Assembly: GCA_964426845.1 (NCBI GenBank)
Contig: CAYRSA010000001.1
Coordinates: forward strand, 43,237-107,236
Source: an uncultured Candidatus Saccharibacteria bacterium
GTDB taxonomy: Bacteria; Patescibacteriota; Saccharimonadia; Saccharimonadales; JAGQNJ01
Direction: 5' to 3'
Length of the DNA stretch: 64,000 nt
The position numbers and the translations under genes are program-made. This document shows, in pieces, positions 5,887 through 63,307 of this stretch (the first letter of the stretch is position 1; each line of letters begins with the position of its first letter). The notes beneath the pieces are model-generated. The model did not search any database. It worked only from the letters and a program-made list of their open reading frames with translations, and had not been told where the DNA came from.

Positions 5887-8718
5887 ATGGAATTAAATAA
5901 GGCTCAAGCGGCGGCGGCCGAACTTACTACCGGCCAGTTACAAGTCGTAGCCGGTGCTGGCACTGGCAAGACCAGGGTCATCGTCCAGAGGATCAGCAAT
6001 CTGCTAGACCAGGGTGTCAAGCCGCAGTCAATTCTGGCAGTGACCTTTACCGAGAAGGCCGCCGCCGAGATGCTGGAGCGAATATTGCAGTCGCGCCCCG
6101 ATCTGCACGCCGAGATGCCAATTCTGACCTTTAACGCTTTCGGCGAGAGACTGCTTCGGGAATTTAACACCGAAATTGGCCTGGGGCGCGGTTTCTTGTT
6201 GCTGAGCGATAGCGCTCAGATAGTTTTTCTCGAACAACACCTTGACGAGCTGGAGCTGGACTTTTACTCACCAGCCACCCAGCCCAAGGGGCAGTTGGTA
6301 GACGTGTCTAAGTACTTTTCTAAACTTAAACAAAACATCGTGACACCCGAAGCCTACGATAAATTTGTCAAGAAAATGGCCAGCGCTGATACCAGCCAAA
6401 AACTCGAGAAGACCAAGCACCAGGAGTTGTCACGGGCCTATGCCAATTACATCCGGCTGTGCAAAGAGTATAACGTCATCGATTATGACGATCAGATTTA
6501 TAGAGCAATTGAACTCCTAAGGGTTCGACCGAATATTCAAACTCTACTACAAGATCGCTACCGAGCGATTATGGTTGATGAGTTTCAGGATACCAACCCT
6601 ATGCAGTCGGAGCTGATTGACTTGCTAAGCGGGCGAGGCAACAGCTTAATGGTTGTTGGTGACGACGACCAGAGCATTTACGGCTTTCGGGGGGCGACTT
6701 TGGCTAATATTTTAGACTTCAAACAGCGCTACCCAAAGAGTCAAGAGGTGACCTTGATTGAAAACTATCGCAGTGGTCAGGCTATTCTGGATGCCGCTTA
6801 CTCGCTAGTACAGAACAATAACCCTTATCGTTTGGAAGCTACGCTTGGCATCGACAAGCGCCTACGAGCAAAAAAGGCCGGCAAAAAGCCAACCATCAAG
6901 CAATTCTCACGCCGAGACTATGAATTGCAATGGATTGTCGATGACATTATCGAACATCTTGCTGGCGGCACTCCGGCCGGAGAGATTGCTGTGCTAGTTC
7001 GCAATAATACGACCGCTAAGCTTATTGGCCAAGCTTTGAATCTAGCCGATATCGACTACGTCATTATTGGTGAACGCTACCAACTATACAGAACAGAGGT
7101 AGTTCGAATGATTGTCGAAGCCTTGCGCTGCATTATCGACACCACCAACAACACCAGCCTATATCACACCTTGGGCAGTGATCTTTTCGGTATTTCCGGG
7201 GCACTACTGGCCGATCTGTCCGGCCAAGCTCGGGTTAACAAGCAACGACTTGAGGAATTCTTGAATGAACAATCCGATGAAACTAAAGTTCAAGAGGCTC
7301 TGACTCAGATCAAACACTGGCGGGAAATGGCACCGACAACCGCTGTCGACAAGCTAGTTTACGCAATTCTCGATGAAACTGGCTATAAAAATCGGATTTA
7401 TAGCCGAGCCATGAGCGACACAGCCACCTCCATAACCGCTCAGCAACTGACCGAGTTTTTTAGAGCCATGGGCGAATTCGTATCTATTGCCCAACAACCA
7501 ACCGCTCTGCAGTATCTGGAATCATATCCGGTCCTGGAAGCGGCCGGTGAAAGCTCTGAGGATCAGACCCTACAGATTAGCAACCAACGAGTCAACGTCT
7601 TGACCATCCATAAAGCCAAAGGCCTAGAATGGGAAACAGTCTACATACCAGACTGTGTCGAGCGGGTACTGCCTAACACTACGCCACGGGGTGGCATCCC
7701 TCTGCCTAAAAAACTGGTGGCCAAGCATGTCTCGGAAGCTGATGACCAAATTGCCGAGGAGCGACGTCTGATGTACGTAGCCATGACCCGGGCCAGGGAA
7801 GACTTAATCATCTCCTTCAGTCGCAGCCATAACGGTCGGACTGCTCGCCGGCCATCGCGGTTTATCTCGGAAACATTTAAAAAAGATGAATTCGCCGACA
7901 GCGATGGCCGCTTACCGCCCCAGACCTTAGAGCTAGCCATTGCCGAGTCCATGGTCCAAAAGGAAGTACCACTCCCAGCCAGTATGCGCGAGGGCGAAAA
8001 CCTGCGGCTCAGCGTTAGCCAAATCGAGACCTACTTGCATTGTCCGCTTAACTTTTACTTTAAACACATTCTCAACATACCCGAACCAGCCAGCACCCAA
8101 GCCAGTTACGGCCAGGCCATTCATGGCGCAATCGAGACTATAAATAAAGCTTTGATGTCCGGAGACAAGCCTGACCTAAAGGCTGTCGAGTTGACCTTAG
8201 TAGAGGATATCGATAACGTCCCCGCCGAGTCTCAGCTTCTTAAACAACGCTTACAGCAACAGGCCTTAGACACCATTAGGCGATTCTATAAGTCACATGT
8301 CGAAGACAACCCGGAGGTGCCACAGCTAGTCGAGTCGTCATTTAGAATAAGGCTGGCTGATCAGAATTTAGTGATAACCGGACGCCTGGACGCCGTATTC
8401 GCATCTGAAAAGGGCGTCGAAATTCGGGACTACAAGACTAGCCCCAACGTAGACACGCCCACCAAAGCTAAAAACAAAGCCACCAACAGTCCCCAGCTTA
8501 CACTTTACGCGCTGGTCTGGCAGCAGCAACATGATGAGATTCCTCATAAACTGAGTCTTGAGTTCGTCAACACCGATCTGACTGGTAGTGTAGGCAAGAC
8601 TCAGCGGGGCATCGACACGATGACCACTAAGCTAGAGGAAATGGTCAAGTCTATTAGCGAACGCCAGTTCAAACCAGGCAGTAAACACGATTACTGCATC
8701 CATCCAGACCTAGACTAG
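5887..8718 (+). CDS. UvrD/PcrA-type SF1 helicase fused to C-terminal PD-(D/E)xK nuclease domain
   Basis: 943 aa; Walker A GAGTGKT, DEFQDT, VGDDDQSIYGFRGA, TIHKAKGLEW, YVAMTRA; C-terminal GRLDAV...EIRDYKT nuclease motif. Confidence 0.85.
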   Translation: MELNKAQAAAAELTTGQLQVVAGAGTGKTRVIVQRISNLLDQGVKPQSILAVTFTEKAAAEMLERILQSRPDLHAEMPILTFNAFGERLLREFNTEIGLGRGFLLLSDSAQIVFLEQHLDELELDFYSPATQPKGQLVDVSKYFSKLKQNIVTPEAYDKFVKKMASADTSQKLEKTKHQELSRAYANYIRLCKEYNVIDYDDQIYRAIELLRVRPNIQTLLQDRYRAIMVDEFQDTNPMQSELIDLLSGRGNSLMVVGDDDQSIYGFRGATLANILDFKQRYPKSQEVTLIENYRSGQAILDAAYSLVQNNNPYRLEATLGIDKRLRAKKAGKKPTIKQFSRRDYELQWIVDDIIEHLAGGTPAGEIAVLVRNNTTAKLIGQALNLADIDYVIIGERYQLYRTEVVRMIVEALRCIIDTTNNTSLYHTLGSDLFGISGALLADLSGQARVNKQRLEEFLNEQSDETKVQEALTQIKHWREMAPTTAVDKLVYAILDETGYKNRIYSRAMSDTATSITAQQLTEFFRAMGEFVSIAQQPTALQYLESYPVLEAAGESSEDQTLQISNQRVNVLTIHKAKGLEWETVYIPDCVERVLPNTTPRGGIPLPKKLVAKHVSEADDQIAEERRLMYVAMTRAREDLIISFSRSHNGRTARRPSRFISETFKKDEFADSDGRLPPQTLELAIAESMVQKEVPLPASMREGENLRLSVSQIETYLHCPLNFYFKHILNIPEPASTQASYGQAIHGAIETINKALMSGDKPDLKAVELTLVEDIDNVPAESQLLKQRLQQQALDTIRRFYKSHVEDNPEVPQLVESSFRIRLADQNLVITGRLDAVFASEKGVEIRDYKTSPNVDTPTKAKNKATNSPQLTLYALVWQQQHDEIPHKLSLEFVNTDLTGSVGKTQRGIDTMTTKLEEMVKSISERQFKPGSKHDYCIHPDLD

Positions 8719-8719
8719 C

Positions 8720-9424
8720 TTATTTTTTAGTAACTTTTTTGACAGTTTTTTCAGCTTTAGCGGCCGTACGAGCTAAGAAGCCAGGCTGTTTAGCGAACAA
8801 TAGAGCGAACAGATTTACACCAATAACTCCGCCAACCAGTGGTCCGATGACGTAAGCTTTACTCCAAGAGTCAACACCAAGGGCGGCAGCTGGGTTTAAG
8901 ATACCGTTACTGGCTATACCGGCGATGATGATACCGACGGCCAAAGATCCGCCGATAGTGGCGGCCTTTTGTCCACCCTCGTAACCGTTAAAGACGGCGG
9001 CAGCGACACCAAAGGTGAAGATGAAGGCTCCCACTAATTCAGCGACTAGTACTGGCCATTCAAAGGTTGGACCGGCAATGTTTTGCATGCCGGTGGGTAC
9101 AAGGTAGTTGTACAGGCTATAAGCGGCCAGGGCACCCAGGAATTGAGCAGCTACATAAACCAAGGCTCGAACTGTGCTGACCTTACGAGCCGACCACAAG
9201 CCCACAGTGACGGCAGGGTTAACGTGAGCACCAGAAGCGCTACCAATCAGCAGCACCAGCATGGCCATGGTTAAACCCACACCTAAGGCCACAAAGTAAG
9301 GCACACCGATTGCCGATCGCGATACAGCTAATATTGTGCCGGTTAGCACGGCTGTACCCATTACTTCAGCCACTACGGCAGCTGTATTTCTTCTATTCAA
9401 TACGTCCATCTGAGAACCCTCCAA
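8720..9424 (-). CDS. MIP-family channel (aquaporin/glycerol facilitator)
   Basis: 234 aa; two NPA boxes (HVNPAVT, ILNPAAA); 6 TM pattern; Lys-rich C-terminal tail. Confidence 0.9.
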   Translation of the reverse strand: MEGSQMDVLNRRNTAAVVAEVMGTAVLTGTILAVSRSAIGVPYFVALGVGLTMAMLVLLIGSASGAHVNPAVTVGLWSARKVSTVRALVYVAAQFLGALAAYSLYNYLVPTGMQNIAGPTFEWPVLVAELVGAFIFTFGVAAAVFNGYEGGQKAATIGGSLAVGIIIAGIASNGILNPAAALGVDSWSKAYVIGPLVGGVIGVNLFALLFAKQPGFLARTAAKAEKTVKKVTKK

Positions 9425-9478
9425 GTGAATTATTTTCTAACATATAGCATAATCCAATCTAACTGATTATGCAATCTA

Positions 9479-10519
9479 CTACTGGACTATGACAACTGGT
9501 AGAGCTTCGCCTCCGCCCTGTTCTTCAGCAGTCAGCTGTTTGCCAACACCCAGGTTGAAAAGGATCGCACCCATGACTTTGCGAGCGGCCTCGGTCTCTG
9601 TTCGACCTTGTTGCTCAAAGGACTCGAAGACAGCGTCTTTATAGAGCTTAATGGAGGCCACAAATGCTTCAACCGGTTGGCCGTCTGGTCCTTGGAAATC
9701 GCGCATAAAGGCTCCTTCATCGAAAGCCGAATCAGAAGCATCAACTACAACAACTTTTTCACTGTGATCCTCAATAAGTTCCTCATATTCGGCACCATGC
9801 TCAGTAGCAATTTCAATAATACCTTCAACAGGCACATCAAATAAAGCTTTGTTCTTGGCGTTGTGGCCACCACGATTAATTAGCTCCGACACTTCTGCTT
9901 CCTTGAGGTGGTCATGAAGGCCAACTAAGCCACCAACAGTCCAGGCTTTAGGCGCTACCACTGCTTTGTTGCGAACATTGGCTTTGAAAACTTCACCAGA
10001 AGCAAGCTGGCCAGCCGCTCCACAACCGCCGGCACCTTTATTATCATCACCATGCACAACGACTGGTCGGCCTTCGCCAATAATATTGACCACGTTCTGT
10101 TTGACCAGCAGGCTTACTGGTTGGTCATCATACAGCATCATGTCTGAGGCTGCACTAGTAATAGCTTCTCCGCCGGCAGTCTGAGGGTCAGCAAAGCCTT
10201 CCGTGAGCTGTAATCCACCTTCAGGGACGCGACCATCAATGCAACGAAACCGATTTGTCGGTTTACGTCGATATTCTGGACGAGCTACAGCTTGGACAAC
10301 TTCAGTTTTTCGGAGCTCTGGTATATCGGCGGCGCCAATAGCCCCAGCATTACCAGGCCCTAGGTCAGTTACGGCAATAATATTTACTTCTGGCACGATG
10401 AGTTTCTCCTGATTAGCTAACCTTTGGGCAATTTTAATTTGAGGGTCAAATTCCACACGGCTTCCTTGTTTATATTGTGATTTATGTAATTGTTTGTTAG
10501 TGACATTAGTCACAGTCAA
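9479..10519 (-). CDS. hypothetical protein (346 aa) with CxDxR ... H-x9-CG motifs
   Basis: long ORF, no overlap conflict; RCIDGR and VVHGDDNKGAGGCGA about 63 aa apart (see finding). Confidence 0.6.
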   Translation of the reverse strand: MTVTNVTNKQLHKSQYKQGSRVEFDPQIKIAQRLANQEKLIVPEVNIIAVTDLGPGNAGAIGAADIPELRKTEVVQAVARPEYRRKPTNRFRCIDGRVPEGGLQLTEGFADPQTAGGEAITSAASDMMLYDDQPVSLLVKQNVVNIIGEGRPVVVHGDDNKGAGGCGAAGQLASGEVFKANVRNKAVVAPKAWTVGGLVGLHDHLKEAEVSELINRGGHNAKNKALFDVPVEGIIEIATEHGAEYEELIEDHSEKVVVVDASDSAFDEGAFMRDFQGPDGQPVEAFVASIKLYKDAVFESFEQQGRTETEAARKVMGAILFNLGVGKQLTAEEQGGGEALPVVIVQ

Positions 10520-10575
10520 CAGAGGTCAATTGTACAGATGCAAATACACATGTCAAGTATAAATTTTAGATTTTG

Positions 10576-11001
10576 TTAGTGCCGTTTGCGACGCTTGAGT
10601 TCGGCGACCTTCAGGCGCACAGCTGAGCGGTCTAGCAGGCTTTGAGCCTTGTCCAGCGATACTTGGTCCTTGGCGCTCTTGCGTAGCTCCAGGGCCTCCT
10701 GATGAGCTTTCTCGGCCTCTTTTTCGTTGATCTCGTCAGAGGAATCAGCTTCGTCGACCAAAACTCGAACTTTATTATCAGTAATCTCGATGATACCGCC
10801 ATTAGTGGCGTAAACTTTCATAAAATCATCTGGGTCACCAGCTTTGACCCGAACCTTGATAATGCCCGGAGTGGCAATGGTTACCAGGGGCATGTGGTCT
10901 GGGAAGACTGCAATCTGACCTTCAGGTGTCGGTAAAACCACCTCGTGGACATTATCGCCGAACTTAGTGCCGGATAGGGTGACTAGGGAAAAGTGAATCA
11001 T
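10576..11001 (-). CDS. atpC: F1 ATP synthase epsilon subunit
   Basis: 141 aa; beta-sandwich N-domain plus helical C-domain; last gene of the atp operon. Confidence 0.9.
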   Translation of the reverse strand: MIHFSLVTLSGTKFGDNVHEVVLPTPEGQIAVFPDHMPLVTIATPGIIKVRVKAGDPDDFMKVYATNGGIIEITDNKVRVLVDEADSSDEINEKEAEKAHQEALELRKSAKDQVSLDKAQSLLDRSAVRLKVAELKRRKRH

Positions 11002-41421: not shown

Positions 41422-44109
41422 TTACTCCATGTTCCGCTTAACATGTTCCGCTTGATCGGCGGTATAGTATTCGGCTAATTGTCCGTTCCCAGCTAGGTAC
41501 TCTGCAGGTTGTATACCAAGTTCGATGGCCTTTTCCCGAAAGAGCTGGGCCCGCCTGGTGCTTCCCGCAGCCGTGAATGCGGTTACAACCGTGTCTGGAG
41601 CAGGCTGATAACTGAAGTATGGATGTTGCTTTAGCTGTTCGAGGTCTTCGGGAGACAGGTATCTCGATACTCTACCTTTGGAATTTTTGAATCTCTGCCA
41701 CTCCATGCCCAAACTTTTAACCATCTGGTCGATATATCGACCATCTCGTCCCAATTCTTCACTTAGGTCGTTGACTGAGTAGAAGCCATCCGGGGCTACT
41801 GTAGTTGTTAACAACGGATGCTGTTCAAGACTGGCAACATTTTCTGGGGTCAAATGCTTCGATAATCTTCCTTTGTCCGTTCTGTGCATAGTAACTTCTA
41901 TGCCTAGCTCGACACACATACTTTCTAGAGTTATTGTCGAGAGTCCGTTAGACCGAGCAAAGCTTCGAAAGCCGACAAGCGTGTCAGATCCTCGCTCACT
42001 GGTGACAATGGGGTGCTCGGCGATCCGATCATAGTCTTCATCCGAAACGTAAGCAACAGGAATATTTCGCGGACTGCGATAAGTAGTGATTTCTATTCCG
42101 AGGTCTTCACAGGCTGATTGAAAGGCAGCAAGGGTGACATCAAGTTTGGCGTGAGCTTGGTTCACTGAAATAAAGCCCTCCTCAGGTACGGGTGATCCCC
42201 GTCTTTCGTAAGCTTCTCGGAGTATATCTATATCACGTGGTGAATAATGATCTGTCAACAAACCTCGATCTGTCAGATAAGGCGTCGGTGTTACTCCGGT
42301 TTCCGCGACTAGGTCAGCGAATAGTCGAGAGGAGGCGAAGCCTATTTGTTCTGAGACTGTTCTTCGAGTCACAAACTCCTCGGGGGCATAGTCGGCCTGA
42401 ACATCTGGGTATTTTCGAAGATCCTGAATCTGTTCTGGCGACAGACACATGCCTAGCTTTTTGCTGAGTGGAGAGGGGTAGAAAGACACTGCCATCTTGG
42501 TATCACTAATTATTCTCTCTATCTTGGCCCTACTAACTCCCAAGTTTTCGGCTGCAGTCGAGATGTGAACATAATCCTCTGGCATATCTTGGTAGTGCTC
42601 GATAATGTAGTCGACGATCGCCTCGGCATCCTCGGGGTTCAGGTAGTAGTATGTCCGCCGACCTCGGGATATTTGACTAGTTTCAACTTCAAGCAATCCG
42701 GCTATCCGGCCAATAAAGTCATCCGTAACACCTAAGCTATTAGCAAGGCCACCTAGAGTCATCCAACCTGTTTCGTTCATTTGTCTCTCGGTCTGAAGGG
42801 TGTTTTCGACCTCAGACAACACCTCTAAAACATCGCGAGTCGTCTTTGAGAACTTAACTTCACCGATTTGGACACGCTGTACTTCTTTGGGAATGCCTCG
42901 CTTTTCGGCATGGGTCTGAACTTTGTCCCAGAACTCTCTGACCATTAACAGCCTGTCAGCATTAGCTACAAAATCACGAACTTGAACCCGCTCTTTTCCC
43001 GGGAACTTACGCAAGCCCCGACCGAGCTGTTGTAAGAAGATAGTTGGTGATTCGGTCATACGTCGGAAAACCACTTGGTTAACGTCAGGCACATCGATAC
43101 CTTCGTTAAACATGTCAATTGTTAGTAGTGTATCCAGTTCTCCTGACCTTAACTGATCTAGGTATTTTTTGACCTCATGAGTGGGTAAACCCGAATGGAC
43201 GGGGGCGGCACGGTCAAAATACTGAGCAAATTCTTCGGCATCTTCAATCGAGGTACAGAAAACTAGTCGCTTGACCGGACCTTGGATATCAGCCTCGTCA
43301 GCGATACATATATCGGCCATCTCTTGATCTCGTAGGGGAACAAAGATGCTGCGGTTGAGTTGTGTGTAAGCGTGTTCATCGCCGTGTATATCAACCAGGA
43401 GGCGGTTAGTTTCAACGTCGTCAATACAAACCTGATAATCAACTTGGGTCAAGGAACCTTCCGCAATAGCTTCTTCCAGAGGCTTTGTATAGCGTTCAGG
43501 ACCAAAAACTTCCCTAATGTTCCTTTGATCCATACGATCAGGCGTTGCCGTCACCCCGACAAGGGAGTCGAAAGCAAAATACCGAACTGTCGGTTCGTAG
43601 GTTACGGCCTTAGCATGGTGACCTTCGTCGACATAGCCAAATCTGAACTCATCTGGCATAAAGGCCTCTCTCCACCTGCGCATAGCCTGAAAAGAGGCGA
43701 ACAGACAAGTTACTTCATGATAATCCCGTTCTTCACCTGTAAATATACCGTAAGTGTGGTCTGGACCAACTATTTTTTCGAAGCGGTCCCTGGATTGTTC
43801 AAGTATACGGTTTTGATGACAAAGAAATAGCACTCGATCTTCTGGGCTCTGGCTTAATAGTCTGCGGGCATCAGCCGCCATAACCGTGGTCTTACCTAGG
43901 CCTGGAGCCATCTGTATTAGGGTAGTACTAGCGCCTGCTTGACGAGCCGCCTCTATAGCATCCAAGGCCTCAATTTGTTCTACCCGAGTCTCAATATCGG
44001 GATTTTCTTGCTGAATATCAGCTATTAACCTCAGGGTATCTTCTGAAAATGGGTAGCTAGAACCGGGAGGAATTCCTGCTGGCAAGCGCTCAAAACTAAC
44101 GTCCGACAT
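41422..44109 (-). CDS. SF2 DExH helicase (ResIII/Helicase_C type) fused to 7 C-terminal ~60-65-aa HTH-like modules
   Basis: 895 aa; APGLGKT, DEGH, TATP, QQLGRGLR motifs in aa 60-370; repeat region aa 444-895 (nt 41425-42780); stop abuts lipase stop with 0 nt. Confidence 0.85.
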   Translation of the reverse strand: MSDVSFERLPAGIPPGSSYPFSEDTLRLIADIQQENPDIETRVEQIEALDAIEAARQAGASTTLIQMAPGLGKTTVMAADARRLLSQSPEDRVLFLCHQNRILEQSRDRFEKIVGPDHTYGIFTGEERDYHEVTCLFASFQAMRRWREAFMPDEFRFGYVDEGHHAKAVTYEPTVRYFAFDSLVGVTATPDRMDQRNIREVFGPERYTKPLEEAIAEGSLTQVDYQVCIDDVETNRLLVDIHGDEHAYTQLNRSIFVPLRDQEMADICIADEADIQGPVKRLVFCTSIEDAEEFAQYFDRAAPVHSGLPTHEVKKYLDQLRSGELDTLLTIDMFNEGIDVPDVNQVVFRRMTESPTIFLQQLGRGLRKFPGKERVQVRDFVANADRLLMVREFWDKVQTHAEKRGIPKEVQRVQIGEVKFSKTTRDVLEVLSEVENTLQTERQMNETGWMTLGGLANSLGVTDDFIGRIAGLLEVETSQISRGRRTYYYLNPEDAEAIVDYIIEHYQDMPEDYVHISTAAENLGVSRAKIERIISDTKMAVSFYPSPLSKKLGMCLSPEQIQDLRKYPDVQADYAPEEFVTRRTVSEQIGFASSRLFADLVAETGVTPTPYLTDRGLLTDHYSPRDIDILREAYERRGSPVPEEGFISVNQAHAKLDVTLAAFQSACEDLGIEITTYRSPRNIPVAYVSDEDYDRIAEHPIVTSERGSDTLVGFRSFARSNGLSTITLESMCVELGIEVTMHRTDKGRLSKHLTPENVASLEQHPLLTTTVAPDGFYSVNDLSEELGRDGRYIDQMVKSLGMEWQRFKNSKGRVSRYLSPEDLEQLKQHPYFSYQPAPDTVVTAFTAAGSTRRAQLFREKAIELGIQPAEYLAGNGQLAEYYTADQAEHVKRNME

Positions 44110-48514: not shown

Positions 48515-48714
48515 ATCCTTACTTTACCAAAGCACTTATTAAATAGTGCTTAACTTGTAAAAATACTAGGTGAATACCTCGTTTAATAAATAGTAAGTTG
48601 GGCTATTTAATGGATAGGAAATAGTTCGCTTCAGTAACTTTACACCTTAGAGTACGTATAGGGTCTATACAAAATAATGCGATAGTGTATAATTATGTAA
48701 GAAAGTTATATGCT

Positions 48715-49800
48715 ATGATAAATTACGGAAAACCTCCATTTTTACCAGTAAATAATCTCGACGTTTCAAGCTACTACCGCGAATTAGCTGATGCTTCATA
48801 TGCACTCGGCATGCTCCAGGTGGCGCACGGTAAAATAAGCAACTCAGACCACCTTATCCGTCCTCTACTCACAAGAGAAGCTTCGCTCAGTTCTAAAATA
48901 GAAGGAACCGTTACTGATTCAAAGGATGTGTTTATACTTGATGCAACAGGCAAGGCACCTAAGCAAGACACTGTCGTCGTAGCAAACTACCGTCGTGCCA
49001 TGAAGATAGCATCATCGTTTAAAGACGATCGTAAAATTACTCAGACAAAGTTACGCCAACTTCACACTGTCCTGCTTCGCAACACTCCATACACAGGAAC
49101 GCTAGGAAAGTATCGAGAAGTTGACGCATGGATTGGCAAGGATAAAAATACCCCCATTGATAAAGCATTATATGTAGCGCCGCATCCTACTCAGGTTACC
49201 CCTTATATGGACAACCTGCTTAAGTACTTGAATAATTATGATGAGCATCCGCTGATTAAAACAGCGGTATTCCATTACCAGTTCGAAGCTGTGCACCCTT
49301 TTGAGGATGGTAACGGCAGAATTGGCCGCATGCTGGTGCCGGCATTCTTGCACTATCTAGGCGCCCTTTCAGCTCCTGTCCTTTATACAAGTGAATACTT
49401 TGAGAAAGAAGCAGAGACCTATCGTAAAAAACTCAACGATGTTGATAAGACTGGGGACATAACTCCTTGGATAAAGTTCTTTCTTGAATCAATAAAGAAT
49501 CAGTGCGATATCTCTATAGCGTTGGTAGACAGGATTCTGAAACTTAACGCCGAACTTCATGAGACCTATGAACACTCGCAGTCACCAAATGTCGTCCGTG
49601 TAATTGATTACTTTTTCGAGTATCCAATATTCACAGTGCCCGAGATGGTAAAACACCTAGGCATAAACCGTATTACGGCCGTCAATATTCTGAAGAAACT
49701 TGAAAGCGATGGAGTTATTGAGCTACTCGCAAACCTGAAGGGCCCCAAAAATGCCAAGCTTTATTCATTCCCAAAACTGGTAGAAATTATCGTTTCTTAG
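48715..49800 (+). CDS. Fic-family (AMPylation/filamentation) protein with C-terminal wHTH
   Basis: HPFEDGNGRIGR Fic motif; ORF track starts at GTG 48685, first ATG is 48715; start uncertain. Confidence 0.85.
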   Translation: MINYGKPPFLPVNNLDVSSYYRELADASYALGMLQVAHGKISNSDHLIRPLLTREASLSSKIEGTVTDSKDVFILDATGKAPKQDTVVVANYRRAMKIASSFKDDRKITQTKLRQLHTVLLRNTPYTGTLGKYREVDAWIGKDKNTPIDKALYVAPHPTQVTPYMDNLLKYLNNYDEHPLIKTAVFHYQFEAVHPFEDGNGRIGRMLVPAFLHYLGALSAPVLYTSEYFEKEAETYRKKLNDVDKTGDITPWIKFFLESIKNQCDISIALVDRILKLNAELHETYEHSQSPNVVRVIDYFFEYPIFTVPEMVKHLGINRITAVNILKKLESDGVIELLANLKGPKNAKLYSFPKLVEIIVS

Positions 49801-50814: not shown

Positions 50815-52578
50815 ATGGAAAAGGAGAAGAACCTAAGATACAAGGCGTGGCTACGCTCATACTACCGGGGCGCCTGGTTGCACGTCTCGATATTACTGGT
50901 CCTGACCCTGATCCTAGTAGGCATTGAACTAGCCAATCCATGGCCCCTGAAGCTACTGGCCGATTCAGTCTTCGGCGACGTACCGCCGCCGGGTTTTTTG
51001 GCTGAATACTCCAGGGAGTCGCTGCTGGTTTTGGTAGCCTTTTCATACATCGGCCTGTACTTGTTCGGCAGCTTGTTTGCCTTTATTAACGACTACCTTG
51101 GTACGCGCTTCAAGATGAGCATGGACCAAAAACTCAAAGAAAACTTTTTCTGGCATGTATTGCATCTGCCAGTCCGCGACCCTCAACGCTTAGAGAACAG
51201 CGACTATGTCTACCGTCTTAATGACGAGAGCAACTCCATGCCAGCCCTGGTCTTTGACAACTTTATCACCATTGTCAGTTCGACTATTACCATTGGTGGT
51301 GTCCTGATTATCTTGCTGATGTTTGACTGGCAAATGACCTTGCTGGCTCTGGCTATTGTGCCTTTCTTATTCTTGTCGGTGGTTTACTTCGGCAAGCGCC
51401 TAGAGAAACAGTCCGAGATCATTGAAGAGGCTTACAGCGATATCTACAGCCACACAACCGAGTCCATAGAGAATACCGACATCGTTCAGTCCTTCAACCG
51501 CCAACAACAGCAAGTCGCGGACTTAGGTGCCTTGCTGAAACGACGCCTCAAGGAAGAGCTGAAGAGCACCACCTTAAATGGCCGGTTTAGCTTCACTAAC
51601 AGTTTGTTGTCCATCCTATCGATTTGTGTGGTTATCGTCTTAGGCGGTCATGCCGTCTTTAACGGCCGCATAACCTTCGGAGACTTGTTGATCTTCGTGA
51701 CTTACACCCAGGCCATGTATGACCCCTTACAGGCCTTGTCCGAAGCCCTGGGAGCTCGTAAAGACAATCACGGCCGGCTCAAGCGCGTTTTTGAGGTTAT
51801 CTACGATCACGCCGACATCGAGAACACTAATGTCGGGGCGGTGATGGAGAACGTCCAGGGTCGTATTAGCTTCAGAAAGGTTTCTTTTAGCTACAAAGAT
51901 AAGGTCATTTTAGATAATGTCACCCTAGATGTCCGGGCAGGCGAGAAAGTCGGCTTTATCGGGCCCAGCGGCACCGGGAAGAGCACTATGTTGTCGCTGT
52001 TGCCGCGTTTTGGATTACCAGATAGTGGCTTTATCTACATCGACGGACAGGAGATCAGCACTCTTAATCTCAAGAGCCTGCGCGAGCAGATTGCCATCGT
52101 CTCCCAAGAACCTAAGCTATTCTCCATAACCATTGGCGAGAACATCGCCTATGCTTATCCCGATGAGACAAACCCCTTACCAGATATCATGCGAGCCGCA
52201 GTGGCAGCTAACGCCTCGGAGTTTATTGATAGGTTACCCGATAAATACGACACGCCGGTTAACGGCAGTGGAACCAGCCTTAGCGGTGGTCAGAAACAGC
52301 GGGTGGCTGTGGCTAGAGCGATGTTCAAGCGGGCACCGATTCTCATCTTGGATGAGCCAACATCGGCACAGGATACTAGCTCTGAGAATAAAGTCTTGGA
52401 CGGCATTAACCACCTCATGCACGGTAAGACGGTGATGATGGTGACTCACAAACACTCACTATTGTCAGCCATGGACACAATTTATGTTATTGAAGACGGC
52501 AAGATTAGAAACGTTAAAGAATACGGCGGTCTAGACTCTTACGAGCGCTATCTGGAGATTCACGAACTAAAAAGCTAA
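50815..52578 (+). CDS. ABC exporter, fused permease/ATPase (MsbA-like type I)
   Basis: 587 aa; 6 TM; Walker A GPSGTGKST, signature LSGGQKQR, Walker B ILILDEPTS. Confidence 0.9.
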   Translation: MEKEKNLRYKAWLRSYYRGAWLHVSILLVLTLILVGIELANPWPLKLLADSVFGDVPPPGFLAEYSRESLLVLVAFSYIGLYLFGSLFAFINDYLGTRFKMSMDQKLKENFFWHVLHLPVRDPQRLENSDYVYRLNDESNSMPALVFDNFITIVSSTITIGGVLIILLMFDWQMTLLALAIVPFLFLSVVYFGKRLEKQSEIIEEAYSDIYSHTTESIENTDIVQSFNRQQQQVADLGALLKRRLKEELKSTTLNGRFSFTNSLLSILSICVVIVLGGHAVFNGRITFGDLLIFVTYTQAMYDPLQALSEALGARKDNHGRLKRVFEVIYDHADIENTNVGAVMENVQGRISFRKVSFSYKDKVILDNVTLDVRAGEKVGFIGPSGTGKSTMLSLLPRFGLPDSGFIYIDGQEISTLNLKSLREQIAIVSQEPKLFSITIGENIAYAYPDETNPLPDIMRAAVAANASEFIDRLPDKYDTPVNGSGTSLSGGQKQRVAVARAMFKRAPILILDEPTSAQDTSSENKVLDGINHLMHGKTVMMVTHKHSLLSAMDTIYVIEDGKIRNVKEYGGLDSYERYLEIHELKS

Positions 52579-52582
52579 AAAC

Positions 52583-52711
52583 CTATGGTCGGCCCGAGGG
52601 ACGGCTGGGTCGGCCAATGGCTGCTCCGCGTATCTCTTGTTGTTTCTTGATGATAGCAGTTATATGCGAAGTAGGACTTCGGCGAGCTTGTGTTGTGTAG
52701 TTTTTTGGCAT
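52583..52711 (-). CDS. Pro/Arg-rich mini-protein C (42 aa)
   Basis: MPKNYTTQARRSPTSHITAIIKKQQEIRGAAIGRPSRPSGRP; SD AAGGAG 4 nt upstream; 11 nt after the stop of peptide B; stop 4 nt from the ABC exporter stop. Confidence 0.55.
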   Translation of the reverse strand: MPKNYTTQARRSPTSHITAIIKKQQEIRGAAIGRPSRPSGRP

Positions 52712-52722
52712 TTGACTCCTTT

Positions 52723-52851
52723 TTATTTACCGCGTCCTATTGGTCGACCTGGTCGACTAGGGAGGCGATATATTTGAGTAACCGGGCGTCCGGTTGCTGG
52801 TTTTGGCCTGTTAGGGGTTGGGCGACGACTATTTACTGGTTTTTTTGCCAT
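52723..52851 (-). CDS. Pro/Arg-rich mini-protein B (42 aa)
   Basis: MAKKPVNSRRPTPNRPKPATGRPVTQIYRLPSRPGRPIGRGK; AAAGG 7 nt upstream; 12 nt after the stop of peptide A. Confidence 0.6.
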   Translation of the reverse strand: MAKKPVNSRRPTPNRPKPATGRPVTQIYRLPSRPGRPIGRGK

Positions 52852-52863
52852 TTTTTTGCCTTT

Positions 52864-52989
52864 CTATTTAGTGCGTCTACCTATCGGACGAGCGGGGCGG
52901 CTCGGTGGACGATAAATTATAGTGTTTGGACGTCCAGGTTTTGGTTTCGCTCCACCTGCACCTGGATCAATTGTTGGTGATTTTGCCAT
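52864..52989 (-). CDS. Pro/Arg-rich mini-protein A (41 aa)
   Basis: MAKSPTIDPGAGGAKPKPGRPNTIIYRPPSRPARPIGRRTK; AAGGAT 7 nt upstream; shares YR.PSRP.RPIGR with peptide B. Confidence 0.6.
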   Translation of the reverse strand: MAKSPTIDPGAGGAKPKPGRPNTIIYRPPSRPARPIGRRTK

Positions 52990-53028
52990 TTTATTTATCC
53001 TTTTTTATTTTTGTTGCTTACGCTTTTT

Positions 53029-53058
53029 ATAATAGTCCGCTTGGGATTATTTTGTCAA
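53029..53058 (-). promoter_or_regulatory. promoter of the mini-protein operon (TTGACA-N18-TATTAT)
   Basis: rc TTGACA = 53053-53058, rc TATTAT = 53029-53034, 18-nt spacer; ~40 nt upstream of peptide A ATG. Confidence 0.5.
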
Positions 53059-53111
53059 GCATGGTATAACTATCAATATCCAACCGAATAATCCAATGGA
53101 GACAAAAACCT

Positions 53112-53945
53112 ATGCCCAATGAAACCCTCGAAGCCTTCGAAGTACAAGAGCTCAACCCCGAGCAATCGGCTGCCTTACTAGATATATCCAACCAAGCGGG
53201 CGTAATCATGGAACAGCGGTGGGGTAGTGGCTTCCCAGAGTTTACCAGAGGCGAGCTGGACACTCTGCCATACCATAATCTGAACCACGCCGAGACCCAC
53301 GCCCGAGCCAGTGCTAAGATTGTCGAGAAGTTGGGCTTTCCACAACCATATGTGGTTTTGGCCGAATTGACCGGTCGCTCTCATGACCTAGAACAGCAGA
53401 AGGGCCGGGGCCAGGACGAAGCCGACAGCGCCAGTTGGCTGGGCGAAAAGCTGCGCGAAACCGGCTTGTTCCCAGAGTCATATATTAAGATGGCCGAGCT
53501 GGGCATTGTTGGTACCGAGCCAGTCTTTGACGATAAGGGCATACCAACCGGCCAAGTAGCTACTACCCAAGAATACCCTGATGAAATCACCGCCAAATTC
53601 GCCAAGGCTATTGCTTGTGGCGATTTTGCCCATTTGTATTCACCAGCCGGACCGTATCTCGGGCAAATGCTATACTGCGAGATCAACAAGCTTGACCCAC
53701 AGGCCACCGGCCCTATCGAAGATATTGACAAGGTCACTGCTTGGTTTGAGGGCAATGTTAGACTACTTGCCAACTTCAAGTTTGCTCTGCCAGAGGCTGA
53801 GGAGATTCTTACTGGCAATAAAGTAGCAGTCCAAGCTCATACCGACCAGCTAGTGGCCAACCTACGTGGTGGTGAAATCTCTACTTGGGATCAGCTGACC
53901 AAGGCCAACCTTGGCTTTATGGAAATTACTAGTGCCAGCCAGTAG
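53112..53945 (+). CDS. hypothetical protein, possible HD-domain phosphohydrolase
   Basis: 277 aa; H...HD pattern (YHNLNHAETH ... GRSHDLEQ); weak call. Confidence 0.45.
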   Translation: MPNETLEAFEVQELNPEQSAALLDISNQAGVIMEQRWGSGFPEFTRGELDTLPYHNLNHAETHARASAKIVEKLGFPQPYVVLAELTGRSHDLEQQKGRGQDEADSASWLGEKLRETGLFPESYIKMAELGIVGTEPVFDDKGIPTGQVATTQEYPDEITAKFAKAIACGDFAHLYSPAGPYLGQMLYCEINKLDPQATGPIEDIDKVTAWFEGNVRLLANFKFALPEAEEILTGNKVAVQAHTDQLVANLRGGEISTWDQLTKANLGFMEITSASQ

Positions 53946-53947
53946 TC

Positions 53948-55159
53948 CTATTCTCGCCGAAGAGCCGCTATGGGATCCTTTTTGGCAGCTTTGACGGCCG
54001 GGGCAACACCGAAGATGCCGCCCACGGCTATTGCCACAAACAGGGCGATGATGGCGTATTGCGGTGGCAAAACCAAGCTGATGTCGGTGAATAAGTTCAT
54101 ATAAATGACGACTGCATAGGCCAGCACAACGCCCAGTAGACCGCCGACGGCACTTAAGATAACGGCTTCGGCCAGGAACTGTTGCAGGATTTGTTGGTCG
54201 GTGGCGCCGACAGCTTTGCGCACACCAATCTCGTGAGTCCGCTCGGTGACCGATACGATCATGACGTTCATAACCCCAATACCGCCAACGAACAGGGAAA
54301 TAGCCGCGATGGCCGCCACTAGGCCGGTCAGGATATCCAAAGTTTGACTGGTCAGAGCCAGGGTCTCGGTTTGTTTGAGAACGCTGAAGTCCTCTTGGCC
54401 GCCGTGGGCCTTCTTAAGATTAGCCACTACTTCCTGCTGAGCCTGATCGACTGCGTCCGGGCTGGTCGGTTTGGCTAGAATTTGGAAAATCTGAGCATTG
54501 CCCTCGGCCACAGCTTTGCCCGTGGTGTAGGGGATAAAGATAGCACTGTTGTAGTTGGCTCCCGGCGTGAAGGGCGAGCTGTCGAACTCGGCCAGAACAC
54601 CTTTGACGATATAGCGTTCGCCACGGAAGTCCAGGGCTTTGCCGACCGGTACGTTTTCTTGGAAGACTTCTTCAGCCACCTGTTTGCCGATAACTGCAAA
54701 CTTGCGGCCCTCGTCGGTCTCCCGGAAAAACTCGCCATATTCAATCTTGTGGTTAAGCAGTTCTGGGAAGACATGAGTGGTGGCAATCACCCCGCCATTT
54801 TGGTACTTCTTGCCGTCATAACTAACAATGCCGGTTACCGTACTCAGTGGAGCCACGGTCTGGACTTCGGACGCGCTGGTGACAGCCTCGACGTCAACAT
54901 CATTGAGTGTGCCGGTCGGCCCGCTTCCGAAAATCGAACTGCTGGACACCCCGCTCTTACCGGTCGTGCCAGGACGCACCAACAGCAAATCGCTGCCATA
55001 CTCTTGGACCTGGCCCCGGATATCCTGCTTAGCCCCTTCGCCGAGAGAAATAATGACCAGCACCGAAGTCACGCCGACAATTATACCCAGCATAGTAAAC
55101 AAACTGCGCAGTTTAGCTCGTTTAATCGATTGCCAAGCTAATTTCAGGTTGCCATTCAT
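53948..55159 (-). CDS. ABC transporter permease, MacB/FtsX type
   Basis: 403 aa; N-terminal TM, large extracytoplasmic domain, three C-terminal TM (FtsX fold). Confidence 0.85.
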   Translation of the reverse strand: MNGNLKLAWQSIKRAKLRSLFTMLGIIVGVTSVLVIISLGEGAKQDIRGQVQEYGSDLLLVRPGTTGKSGVSSSSIFGSGPTGTLNDVDVEAVTSASEVQTVAPLSTVTGIVSYDGKKYQNGGVIATTHVFPELLNHKIEYGEFFRETDEGRKFAVIGKQVAEEVFQENVPVGKALDFRGERYIVKGVLAEFDSSPFTPGANYNSAIFIPYTTGKAVAEGNAQIFQILAKPTSPDAVDQAQQEVVANLKKAHGGQEDFSVLKQTETLALTSQTLDILTGLVAAIAAISLFVGGIGVMNVMIVSVTERTHEIGVRKAVGATDQQILQQFLAEAVILSAVGGLLGVVLAYAVVIYMNLFTDISLVLPPQYAIIALFVAIAVGGIFGVAPAVKAAKKDPIAALRRE

Positions 55160-56031
55160 GACTTTTTAACCTTTTTAGTCTTCTTCTTGGACTTAAGTTT
55201 GGCCTTGCGCTTTTTCTTGGCCGGCTTAGTTTTATCCTCTTCGCCTGGAATAGCCTTCATCAAGGCCGACACCCCAGCTGCGTCGTCCTCCTCAGTCTTC
55301 CTGGATACAAAGTACATACTACGCTGCAGAATCTGCGGTATATCACCGATTTGGCTCTGCTCGTCGTGGATAATCGCCCCATCGTGCATGTAGACGACGC
55401 GGCTGGCGTACCTAGTCAGGGCCGGGTTGTGGGTGACCATCAACACAGTGTTGCCGGCTTTGTGAATTTCGCTGAGCAACTCCATGACTAAACGCGAGGA
55501 TTCACTGTCTAGATTGCCGGTTGGCTCATCGGCGATTATCAGACTAGGGTTATTGATAAGCGCTCGGGCAATGGCTGCTCGCTGGGCCTCACCACCGGAC
55601 AGCTGGGAAGGGTAGAAATACTCGCGGTCAGCCAAGCCAACCCGGTCTAGGATCTCGCTGGCTCGTTTAGCCCGGCGCACCGGTGTTAAACCCTTGTAGG
55701 CCAGGGGCAAAGCTACGTTTTCCAGAACCGTCAGTTCGGGCAGCAGATTAAAGGATTGAAAGACAAAGCCTACAGTATCACGGCGGATCCGAGCCCGCTG
55801 CCTAGACCGTAGCTTGCCAGTCATGCGGGCGCCCAGCTTGTAATTACCGTGACTTGGTGTGTCCAGCAAGCCAATGACGTTCATAAGAGTGGTCTTGCCG
55901 GAGCCACTAGGGCCCATTATGGCAATGAAGTCGTTCTTCTCGACCACGAAATTAACTTCGTCCAAAGCAATAGTGGCAGCCTCACCAAAGCCATAGAGTT
56001 TGCTTAGTTCCTGAATTTCGATTAACGCCAT
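55156..56031 (-). CDS. ABC transporter ATP-binding protein (MacB/LolD type) with polylysine C-terminal tail
   Basis: 291 aa; [28 protein letters not shown]; last 30 aa [25 protein letters not shown]; ATGA overlap with permease. Confidence 0.9.
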
Positions 56032-62185: not shown

Positions 62186-63307
62186 ATGAGCAGTAACGAC
62201 CATGACAACCTAGAGCCGGCGGTTAATATTGCCCGCGCCAAGCTGGCCAAGCTATACGCCGAAGAGCCCAACGCCAAGGAGGAGATTGTTGAGGCTAGTA
62301 CGGCCACACACCGCTCCAAGCACCAGCGCTATATGCACTCCTTAAGCACTTCTGGGAAATCTCTGGCCGAGATTCAAACGGCTTGGCACAGTTATTACGT
62401 CGGCCTATCCGATAAGGAAAAGCACGATGTTTGGCAGGAGTTCTACGCCGCTCATGATAAAACTAATATCCCACCGGCGCAGGCACCCCAAGCTCAACAT
62501 CCAGTTGCCGATGTACCCAAAAAGCCGGCCAAGCCTCAGTCGGTGGCCGCCGTCAAGCAAAGGATTGTCCGATCTGCCAACTCTGGCCGCAAACCCTCCA
62601 GGAAACAGCACCTCCACTCCATGTTCTTTGGCCTGGGTATGGGTGCGTTAGTCATGTTAGTGCTGCTGTTTGGCTTCTTCAATGAGCGCTTTGTAGCGCC
62701 GTTTATTACTCCAAGTCGAGCCGTAAGTTCAACACCAATAATTGTCGATCCTAACTCCACGGTGGCCGGACCGGAGTCTGAAATCATCATTCCCAAGATT
62801 AATGTTGAAATCCCAGTTGTTTACGACGTCGGCACTACCGAAGCTGATATCCAAAACGCCCTCGAGAGGGGAGTCGTCCACTATTCCAGCACGCCCAACC
62901 CCGGGCAAAAGGGCAACTCGGTGATTGTCGGCCACTCCAGCAACAACATTTTCAACCAGGGTAAGTATAAGTTTGCTTTCGTTTTACTGAATAAGTTGGA
63001 AGTAGGTGACATCTTCTACTTAACCAAGGATGGCGTCCGCTATGCCTACAAGATTTACGAGAAGAAGGTTGTACCGCCGTCGGATGTCTCGGTCTTAGGC
63101 CCCAATGATAAGCCGGCCACGGCTACACTCATCACTTGCGATCCGCCGGGCACCTCTATCAACCGCTTAATCGTGGTTGGCGAGCAAATCAGCCCCGACC
63201 CCAACAACAACACCGCCAGTACAGCTAGTCCGGCTGCCGGCGAAACCAGCACTGTGCCTGGTAATGCTCAGTCCCTGTGGAACCGCATCACAGACCTAAT
63301 TTTCTAG
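62186..63307 (+). CDS. sortase-family transpeptidase with long N-terminal extension
   Basis: 373 aa; TM at ~aa 150-170; catalytic VIVGHS and TLITCDP (TLxTC) motifs. Confidence 0.85.
   Translation: MSSNDHDNLEPAVNIARAKLAKLYAEEPNAKEEIVEASTATHRSKHQRYMHSLSTSGKSLAEIQTAWHSYYVGLSDKEKHDVWQEFYAAHDKTNIPPAQAPQAQHPVADVPKKPAKPQSVAAVKQRIVRSANSGRKPSRKQHLHSMFFGLGMGALVMLVLLFGFFNERFVAPFITPSRAVSSTPIIVDPNSTVAGPESEIIIPKINVEIPVVYDVGTTEADIQNALERGVVHYSSTPNPGQKGNSVIVGHSSNNIFNQGKYKFAFVLLNKLEVGDIFYLTKDGVRYAYKIYEKKVVPPSDVSVLGPNDKPATATLITCDPPGTSINRLIVVGEQISPDPNNNTASTASPAAGETSTVPGNAQSLWNRITDLIF

Follow-up and report, generated by a model that had tools for sequence, protein, structure and literature searches.

A predicted operon of small proline- and arginine-rich peptides that varies between strains of an uncultured Candidatus Saccharibacteria bacterium

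What is the role of three very small genes that lie between two ATP-binding cassette (ABC) transport systems in a bacterium known from uncultured material? The question is raised by a stretch of DNA of 64,000 nucleotides (nt) from an uncultured Candidatus Saccharibacteria bacterium (contig CAYRSA010000001.1, positions 43,237 to 107,236; this whole stretch is hereafter called the window), in which an original prediction, made from the sequence alone, had placed an operon of three unannotated peptides, A, B and C, and had likened them to the proline-rich antimicrobial peptides (PrAMPs) of animals. In this study, we provide evidence from expression signals and substitution patterns that the three small open reading frames (ORFs) are, with high confidence, protein-coding and predicted to form one transcription unit, and that they belong to a peptide family which is new in sequence and of a chemistry unusual for a bacterium. 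As to their role, we tentatively propose, with a probability of about one in three, that they are a leaderless set of two types of cationic peptide, which would affect other cells by binding a non-lytic target in an extended form.

The coordinates and translations of the three tandem minus-strand ORFs agreed exactly with the original prediction (Table 1), and so did the signals that it had named, namely a Shine-Dalgarno (SD)-like element before each gene, spacers of 12 and 11 nt between the genes where 11-12 nt had been given, and a TTGACA-N18-TATTAT promoter upstream. When ranked by combined proline, arginine and lysine content, A and B come first and second among the 325 ATG-initiated ORFs of 20-70 amino acids (aa) in the window, and among the 25 listed ORFs richest in these residues, only A, B, C and one other are preceded by an SD-like element. 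Related loci were reached through the neighbouring ABC exporter and a 277-aa protein encoded on the other side, and fell into four haplotypes: A-B-C in the window and in an identical contig (L001); A-C1-C2 in L004, whose flanking proteins are 85% identical; A followed by a C of 46 aa in L010, L011 and L017; and, in L014, L015 and L016, A, a C of 42 aa and the decayed remains of a third copy, which lacks a proper start (L014 4266-4409). A-type orthologues were found in L004, L010/11/17 and L014/15/16, and B was seen only in the window strain and L001. The ATG, the SD and the -35 TTGACA of the first gene are invariant across the four haplotypes, and the leader stretch AAAAAGGA together with the ATG is common to all of them; by contrast, the TATTAT of the window is replaced in the other haplotypes by weaker -10 sequences (TAATCT or AGTAAT).

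Conservation of the reading frames in relatives had been named beforehand as a check, and it was borne out by the four haplotypes: the indels within the A gene are in-frame (6 and 3 nt), and the differences between L004 and L010 in this gene fall on codon positions 1, 2 and 3 in the numbers 3, 1 and 15. The ratio of nonsynonymous to synonymous substitution rates (dN/dS, Nei-Gojobori) of A is 0.07-0.09 between L004 and the L010/L014 lineages, that of other pairs, paralogues included, is 0.23-0.31 (0.23 for the window's A against L004), and that of peptide C against its relatives is 0.30-0.46. The peptides had been described as unannotated, which holds well beyond the window, since the exact sequences of A, B and C are absent from a collection of 15 billion proteins and the gene callers applied to related contigs either left the peptide gap empty or called an antisense ORF in it. 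The 96-aa ORF on the plus strand, which the original prediction had dismissed as spurious, does exist, but its frame is split into pieces of 40-62 aa in L004 and reaches 72 aa in L010, and the third-position bias of the substitutions fits the minus-strand frame and not this one. Its first codon position falls on the wobble position of the minus-strand genes, thus it is their shadow. Automatic gene calling placed a 72-aa ORF opposite the peptide genes, on the plus strand, in three related contigs (L010 1196-1414, L011 389-607 and L017 2871-3089); this mis-annotation is systematic, because the antisense strand of a coding sequence rich in CCN, CGN and GGN codons is poor in stops.

Table 1. Features of the peptide locus and its immediate flanks, in window coordinates
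Feature	Position	Strand	Basis or remark
Peptide A (A-type, 41 aa, MAKSPTIDPGAGGAKPKPGRPNTIIYRPPSRPARPIGRRTK)	52864-52989	-	ORF read in the sequence, ATG start
Peptide B (second A-type copy, 42 aa, MAKKPVNSRRPTPNRPKPATGRPVTQIYRLPSRPGRPIGRGK)	52723-52851	-	ORF, ATG start
Peptide C (C-type, 42 aa, MPKNYTTQARRSPTSHITAIIKKQQEIRGAAIGRPSRPSGRP)	52583-52711	-	ORF, ATG start
Predicted promoter of the peptide operon, sigma-70-type	53029-53058	-	TTGACA-N18-TATTAT, 11 of 12 consensus positions matched
5' leader of peptide A, with SD AAGGAT (53002-52997)	52990-53028	-	Read in the sequence
SD of peptide B, AAAGG	52863-52859	-	Read in the sequence
SD of peptide C, AAGGAG	52721-52716	-	Read in the sequence
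Spurious antisense ORF, 96 aa	52690-52980	+	Length and frame not conserved; shadow of the minus-strand genes
MsbA-type ABC exporter, convergent	50815-52578	+	Context only; Pfam ABC_membrane and ABC_tran
277-aa protein of HD-superfamily phosphohydrolase fold, divergently transcribed	53112-53945	+	Context only; AlphaFold2 fold
MacB/FtsX permease and ATPase	53948-56031		Pfam

It could be asked whether the products matter at all, or whether the locus works in cis or as RNA, either as arrest or leader peptides built on proline and arginine codons or through a strong promoter whose main effect would be to send antisense transcripts into the exporter gene at its 3' end. As had been predicted, the stop codon of C lies 4 nt from that of the convergent exporter, and no terminator-like site of the minus strand was found between the two, the first being at 52267-52253 inside the exporter gene; moreover, RPP and PPG/PPS motifs occur in the family peptides. 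However, there is no downstream cistron on the minus strand to be regulated, selection acts on the amino-acid sequence and not on RNA alone, the three ORFs are separately initiated, each with its own SD, and the Rfam search of the window returned no family apart from transfer RNAs (tRNAs), so that an action of this kind is very unlikely.

Multiple sequence alignment of nine sequences with MAFFT revealed one family with one plan and two subtypes. The plan starts with M-[AS]-K and a basic, proline-rich stretch, continues with [KR]P.[SR]P[NQ]T[IL] and a short aliphatic patch (IIY, or I/V-S-x-I-I), and ends with RP[SA]RP...[SI]G.RP. The A-types share the signature ...KPKPGRPNT[IL]IYRPP[ST]RPxRPIG..., and the C-types ...RRPASPxT[IV]SxI[IL], then a polar linker of about 10 residues that is restricted to this subtype, and then RPSRP..SGRP-stop, of which SGRP-stop is the exact end of all C-types in every haplotype. 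The claim that A and B are paralogues was confirmed (60% identical, dN/dS 0.31), and C, for which a shared C-terminal motif had been noted, proved to be a more distant member, an A-type corresponding in the alignment to a C-type minus its linker. At the level of DNA, the conserved core is GGACGTCCAAACAC-N3-ATTTATCGTCC.

The net charge is +8 to +12 in A, B and C and +7 to +11 in the peptides of relatives, the computed isoelectric point (pI) is about 12, and the peptides are almost free of acidic residues. The grand average of hydropathy (GRAVY) ranges from -1.0 to -1.3 in the window peptides and from about -1.0 to -1.4 across all nine, and Cys, Trp and Phe are lacking in the family. Proline makes up 22% of A, 21% of B and 12% of C, reaches 28% in A-types of relatives and amounts to 12-20% in C-types. 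AlphaFold2 modelled no secondary structure (predicted template-modelling score, pTM, 0.17), and, in line with the original prediction, the peptides contain neither a leader nor a signal sequence. The predicted peptides are thus leaderless, cysteine-free, hydrophilic polycations in one orphan family.

Searches for the family elsewhere were negative. Peptides A, B and C had no match in Pfam (AT_hook included, E <= 1), the family had none in NCBIfam or PHROGs, A and C had none in PADLOC, and the family profile had none among PDB sequences at E <= 10; hence the peptides fall into no ribosomal or nucleoid family of Pfam, NCBIfam or the PDB sequences. A word-indexed search of 5.8 billion clusters with the A+B alignment gave no homologue, and tblastn against plasmids and phages none either. 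Genome contigs scanned with the A+B alignment yielded 229 pattern matches, of which 0 were confirmed, the patterns being strict enough to miss even the L004 allele, and the same scan with the ABC exporter retrieved unrelated transporters only. A degenerate DNA motif for the A-type IYRxPxRPxRPIG had 0 matches in viral contigs and 0 in Joint Genome Institute (JGI) metagenomes. Two candidates were rejected: the lone match of HMMER among 1.84 billion representatives (P0058), a 547-aa repeat protein of Ser, Thr and Pro, was compositional, and the 7 metagenome matches of the C-type DNA motif were all chance ORFs such as MAKHYWSRPAWP.... Our literature search found no description of a bacterial PrAMP-like peptide or a proline-rich bacteriocin. 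Orthologues of the exporter occur without the peptides at 70% (L005-7), 58% (L008/9 and L027) and 55% (L028) identity, and the 277-aa protein has homologues (55% and 35% identical) with gaps of only about 120-130 nt alongside, too short to hold the peptides. On present sequences, the peptide family appears to be confined to one narrow clade of the uncultured bacterium. In the literature, the sequencing runs concerned were mentioned once and in passing, in the description of an environmental metagenome from South America.

Within this clade, the array behaves differently from its surroundings. Its order is the same in all four haplotypes, an A-type first and then at least one C-type. A and B differ with a dS of 1.16, which suggests that B is an old paralogue of A. 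The window and L014 form one species-level group, with 98.8% identity in the exporter, 97.8% in the 277-aa protein and a dS of 0.35-0.40 in the flanks, yet peptide A differs between them at 9 of 39 residues (5 synonymous and 14 nonsynonymous differences, against 177.5 and 16.5 in the flanks; Fisher p 3.9e-10), and dN/dS is about 1 for this pair. Peptide C is 45% identical between the two, with a dS of 1.28, about three times that of the flanks, which points away from vertical descent and towards replacement or conversion of the allele. The 46-aa C of L010 looks like a fusion of the C gene of L014 with the C-terminus of the decayed third copy. By comparison of the haplotypes, copy number shifts among strains, putatively by duplication, fusion and decay, and, as judged from the alignments, purifying selection maintains the core motifs, whereas entire alleles are exchanged or evolve far more rapidly than the genes on either side. 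This turnover of alleles and copies within conserved flanks marks the array as a birth-and-death cassette.

The peptide array lies exactly between the two copies of a perfect 11-nt direct repeat, AAAAACCTATG, one of which (52577-52587) covers the stops of the exporter and C, while the other (53104-53114) is found where the 277-aa gene starts. By chance, about 0.3 repeats of that kind would be expected in the region, and the repeat is partly kept in L010 but not in L004; it could be a coincidence or a trace of the array's insertion.

Alternatively, the genes could be young, fast-evolving orphan sORFs (small ORFs), which would be expressed with little or no specific function and would drift, duplicate and decay in a variable intergenic hotspot. 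The very narrow distribution without homologues in the databases searched, the pseudogene remnant in L014, the dN/dS near 1 of the window's A allele and the occurrence of an unrelated sORF at the same position in other relatives all agree with this view. On the other hand, the dN/dS of 0.07-0.09 of A between L004 and the L010/L014 lineages is a constraint like that on the flanking enzymes, and the invariant start, SD and -35 element, the SGRP-stop kept in all C-types and the fixed succession of A and C are not what drift would be expected to leave. We consider drifting orphan sORFs unlikely.

If the peptides are functional, two settings have to be weighed, outside and inside the producing cell. 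A peptide that is unstructured and has a conserved linear motif most likely binds a macromolecular partner in an extended form, and strain-level turnover, tandem paralogues and strong expression signals in the absence of a fold are more readily reconciled with a conflict molecule than with a housekeeping factor; it is from these two considerations that the reading as a two-type set of conflict peptides derives. The peptides would be made as they are, with no leader and no processing, they would leave the cell via an exporter not dedicated to them, perhaps either of the ABC systems next to the array, and the A-type and C-type pair would act on other cells at a non-lytic target, either intracellular or a polyanion. 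The variable neighbourhood, which holds defence-type genes (SoFic, a helicase resembling type IV restriction enzymes and, in L004, a DUF87/TrwB insertion), supports this proposal.

Several points weigh against such conflict peptides. At the locus, no export signal, dedicated transporter, immunity gene or peptidase was found, and both flanking ABC systems predate the array. The peptides have no hydrophobic or amphipathic segment, thus the membrane insertion usual for bacteriocins is unlikely, while a peptide directed at the ribosome or DnaK in the producer's own cytoplasm raises the problem of self-poisoning, which nothing at the locus would solve. The similarity to PrAMPs is, arasin-1 excepted, at the level of composition. 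Finally, the comparative support is thin, being drawn from one narrow lineage and four haplotypes of 38-46 codons each.

The main alternative is that the peptides are not exported at all but are small basic proteins that stay in the cell and bind the producer's own nucleic acids or ribosomes, as nucleoid-associated, protamine-like, ribosome-associated or tunnel-plugging factors. This alternative avoids the self-poisoning problem and agrees with the lack of signal, leader and dedicated exporter; a strong promoter and SDs are as expected for abundant small proteins, and a core motif kept by purifying selection implies a specific partner. The high pI, the charge of +8 to +12, the predicted disorder and the presence of GRP and SPxx-type elements and a KPKP stretch recall small basic nucleic-acid-binding elements, such as the AT-hook, SPKK/SPxx and protamine-like sequences and the H1-like PAKK tails of actinobacterial HU. 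The likeness has its bounds, since protamines are far richer in Arg, basic tails are parts of folded proteins whereas the window peptides are free-standing, strain-variable and lineage-restricted, and membership among the AT-hooks was rejected: in the nine peptides the residue before the GRP core is P, T, I, S or G but never R, which leaves no R-G-R-P core, and Pfam AT_hook gave no match. Housekeeping nucleoid or ribosomal proteins would, moreover, not usually vary in copy number and alleles between strains with 98-99% identical flanks, nor be confined to one narrow clade and be missing from relatives with a 70%, 58% or 55% identical exporter, and the peptides matched no such family or PDB sequence. 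An intracellular binder is therefore somewhat less likely, and we tentatively retain the exported two-type peptide set as the preferred proposal.

How far does the resemblance to PrAMPs reach? These have been defined by antimicrobial activity with an intracellular target, the 70S ribosome or DnaK, with a proline content of at least 25%, a net charge of at least +1 and a PRP motif that is indicative but not essential (PMC7736402, Box 1), and the type II PrAMPs of the apidaecin family possess the pharmacophore PRPPHPRL, with a penultimate Arg and a C-terminal Leu carboxylate (PMC11549390). The original prediction had itself presented the likeness as one of composition and motif and not of homology. 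The chemistry that it noted stands: like the animal PrAMPs (type I, oncocin, pyrrhocoricin and Bac7; type II, apidaecin and drosocin; and arasin-1), the peptides are short, unstructured, polycationic and rich in Pro and Arg, with R-P repeats, one Tyr or aliphatic patch, variable N-terminal parts before a conserved C-terminal motif, and tandem copies, and all have charges far above +1 (+7 to +12). The more specific likeness did not hold. Proline reaches 25% in none of A, B and C (12-22%) but only in A-types of relatives; A, B and C have SRPARP, SRPGRP and GRPSRP in place of PRP, a tripeptide that the C-types of L004 and L010 do have (RPRPSG); and their C-termini, ...PIGRRTK, ...PIGRGK and ...PSGRP, contain neither PRPPHPRL nor the Arg-Leu-COOH warhead. 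The window peptides are also bacterial, are made without a pre-pro region and are about twice as long as the short insect PrAMPs of our comparison panel (15-20 residues).

Sequence similarity was assessed by Smith-Waterman comparison of five family members with ten PrAMPs (50 comparisons), with composition-preserving shuffles as the baseline; of the PrAMP sequences used, those of arasin-1 (first 25 residues), apidaecin, Bac7 and abaecin agree with Tables 1 and 2 of PMC7736402. For nine of the ten PrAMPs the scores lie within the shuffle distribution (z <= 2.1). Against oncocin, pyrrhocoricin, metalnikowin, Bac7, Tur1A and PR-39, z ranges from -0.7 to 1.6, and no similarity to the YLPRP / PRPxP core of type I PrAMPs was seen that goes beyond composition. 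The exception is arasin-1 (z 4.6 for B and 2.8 for A), whose GRPKPIFRPRP is locally like the GRPxxxIYRxP of the peptides and which owes its score to GRPxxxI[YF]RxRP; given 50 comparisons and the animal source, convergence of a short motif is indicated rather than homology. The PrAMP reading thus remains a chemical analogy that fails the membership criteria open to testing here, charge excepted. A bolder extension would make the peptides the first bacterial leaderless counterparts of Pro/Arg-rich host-defence peptides, an A-type and a C-type being released by the producer, taken up by neighbouring or host bacteria and bound in extended form in the ribosomal exit tunnel or to DnaK, with allele turnover as an arms race, or, as a variant, plugging the producer's own ribosomes as a dormancy factor; this seems to us improbable.

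Among bacterial systems, the leaderless multi-peptide bacteriocins of Gram-positive bacteria, such as the two-peptide enterocin L50/DD14 and the four-peptide aureocin A70, are the nearest in gene organisation. In the passages of two papers that bear on this, leaderless bacteriocins are described as made active without leader peptides, and their producers as needing transport and immunity functions (PMC13262744, PMC6131525). The window locus shares with them tandem paralogous genes for small (30-50 aa) cationic peptides, here two or three ATG-initiated, SD-preceded ORFs with no leader or double-glycine (GG) site, translation without processing, and variation between strains; transport by an ABC-type system instead of Sec would be a further likeness, which for the window peptides is a proposal. 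It differs in that those bacteriocins are hydrophobic or amphipathic, helical and membrane-active, whereas the window family is strongly hydrophilic, has no Trp or Phe and shows no helix in the AlphaFold2 model, and in that their clusters contain dedicated transport and immunity genes, none of which was found at the window locus. No sequence similarity connects the two.

The position beside ABC genes had been taken as a sign of export or immunity, and it also invites a reading of the peptides as precursors of peptides made on the ribosome and modified after translation (RiPPs) or as bacteriocins with a GG leader, processed by the neighbouring exporter. Small tandem ORFs do adjoin an ABC exporter, and bacteriocin-exporter models appear in its NCBIfam list, all of them far below their cut-offs. 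However, the peptides have no leader, GG motif or Cys, and their Ser and Thr form no recognisable core pattern; Pfam gives the exporter ABC_membrane and ABC_tran alone, without a peptidase domain such as C39; the annotated genes of the surroundings include no modifying enzyme; and the exporter is conserved without the peptides. We regard RiPP or GG-leader precursors as highly improbable. Nor did a linkage between the peptide motif and ABC genes in relatives, named beforehand as a point to check, withstand comparison, as the exporter orthologues persist where the peptides are missing. The MacB/FtsX-type system named on the other side is present as a MacB/FtsX gene with an ATPase; in L027 it is convergent with the exporter at a distance of 26 nt with nothing in between, and in L009 the two are near each other and the peptides absent. 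In the window clade, about 1.4 kb, comprising the peptide array and the 277-aa gene, separate them. The pairing in relatives without peptides argues that the two ABC systems are ancestral neighbours and not a dedicated apparatus for export or immunity, and from the gene arrangement they appear to be candidates for opportunistic export, nothing more.

For the present, the family, known from a narrow lineage, is of value as a well-documented lead. Should the peptides prove active, they would represent a new chemical type of ribosomally made bacterial peptide (hydrophilic, unstructured, rich in Pro and Arg, leaderless and unmodified), they would imply that PrAMP-like chemistry arose in bacteria besides animals, and they would offer short, easily synthesised templates together with a natural series of alleles for structure-activity work. 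Regardless of activity, the locus is a clean case of gene-caller failure, in which a conserved and selected three-gene operon was missed and its antisense shadow annotated, and an example of the birth, fusion and death of sORFs inside one species.

The near neighbours of the array are the HD-fold hydrolase, the MacB/FtsX pair and a DUF308 protein. The 277-aa protein had no match in Pfam, NCBIfam, PHROG or PADLOC. Its AlphaFold2 model (predicted local distance difference test score, pLDDT, 85.5) matches YpgQ of B. subtilis best in the PDB (5dqw, template-modelling score, TM, 0.72 on the target), and PDE and SAMHD1 as well, and an H...H...HD pattern is visible in the sequence; the modelled fold is that of the HD-superfamily phosphohydrolases. 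A search of 5.8 billion clusters yielded no more than four homologues, and the protein occurs also without the peptides.

Farther out, a gene with a Fic domain at 48685-49800 on the plus strand matches the SoFic defence model of PADLOC (E 6.6e-92). It is absent at that spot in L004, where the DUF308 gene comes immediately after RadC, and in L014 two small ORFs take its place, thus by comparison of the contigs the SoFic gene is a putative strain-specific insertion. Another defence-type gene, less than 10 kb from the peptides, encodes an 895-aa ResIII/Helicase_C protein (41422-44109, minus strand) that matches PADLOC models of type IV methyl-directed restriction enzymes (E 2.6e-43). In L004, two further genes, one for a DUF87/TrwB-like ATPase of 670 aa and one of 237 aa, separate the 277-aa gene from the MacB permease (8218-10940), which suggests that the site is an insertion hotspot. 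In the place of the peptide array, convergent right behind the orthologous ABC exporter, L005 (2176-2313, minus strand) and L009 (6821-6961, minus strand) contain a different unannotated sORF of 45-46 aa that ends in ...PHNRARTL[YS]LWLRGTQR-stop and whose last 18 codons differ mostly synonymously; hhalign found no relation between it and the peptide family, and NCBIfam no match for it. Downstream of this sORF in L009, gene calling left about 0.9 kb (6962-7874) blank, and Rfam gave no match there at E <= 0.01.

As for the bacterium itself, the window encodes a sortase (62186-63307), an F-type ATPase and an AddA-like helicase, which suggests a monoderm envelope. A WhiB-family gene lies at 1-295 of L027, the contig of a relative with a 58% identical exporter, and together with the sortase of the window it gives a hint of a monoderm lineage, which may be related to actinobacteria or associated with them.

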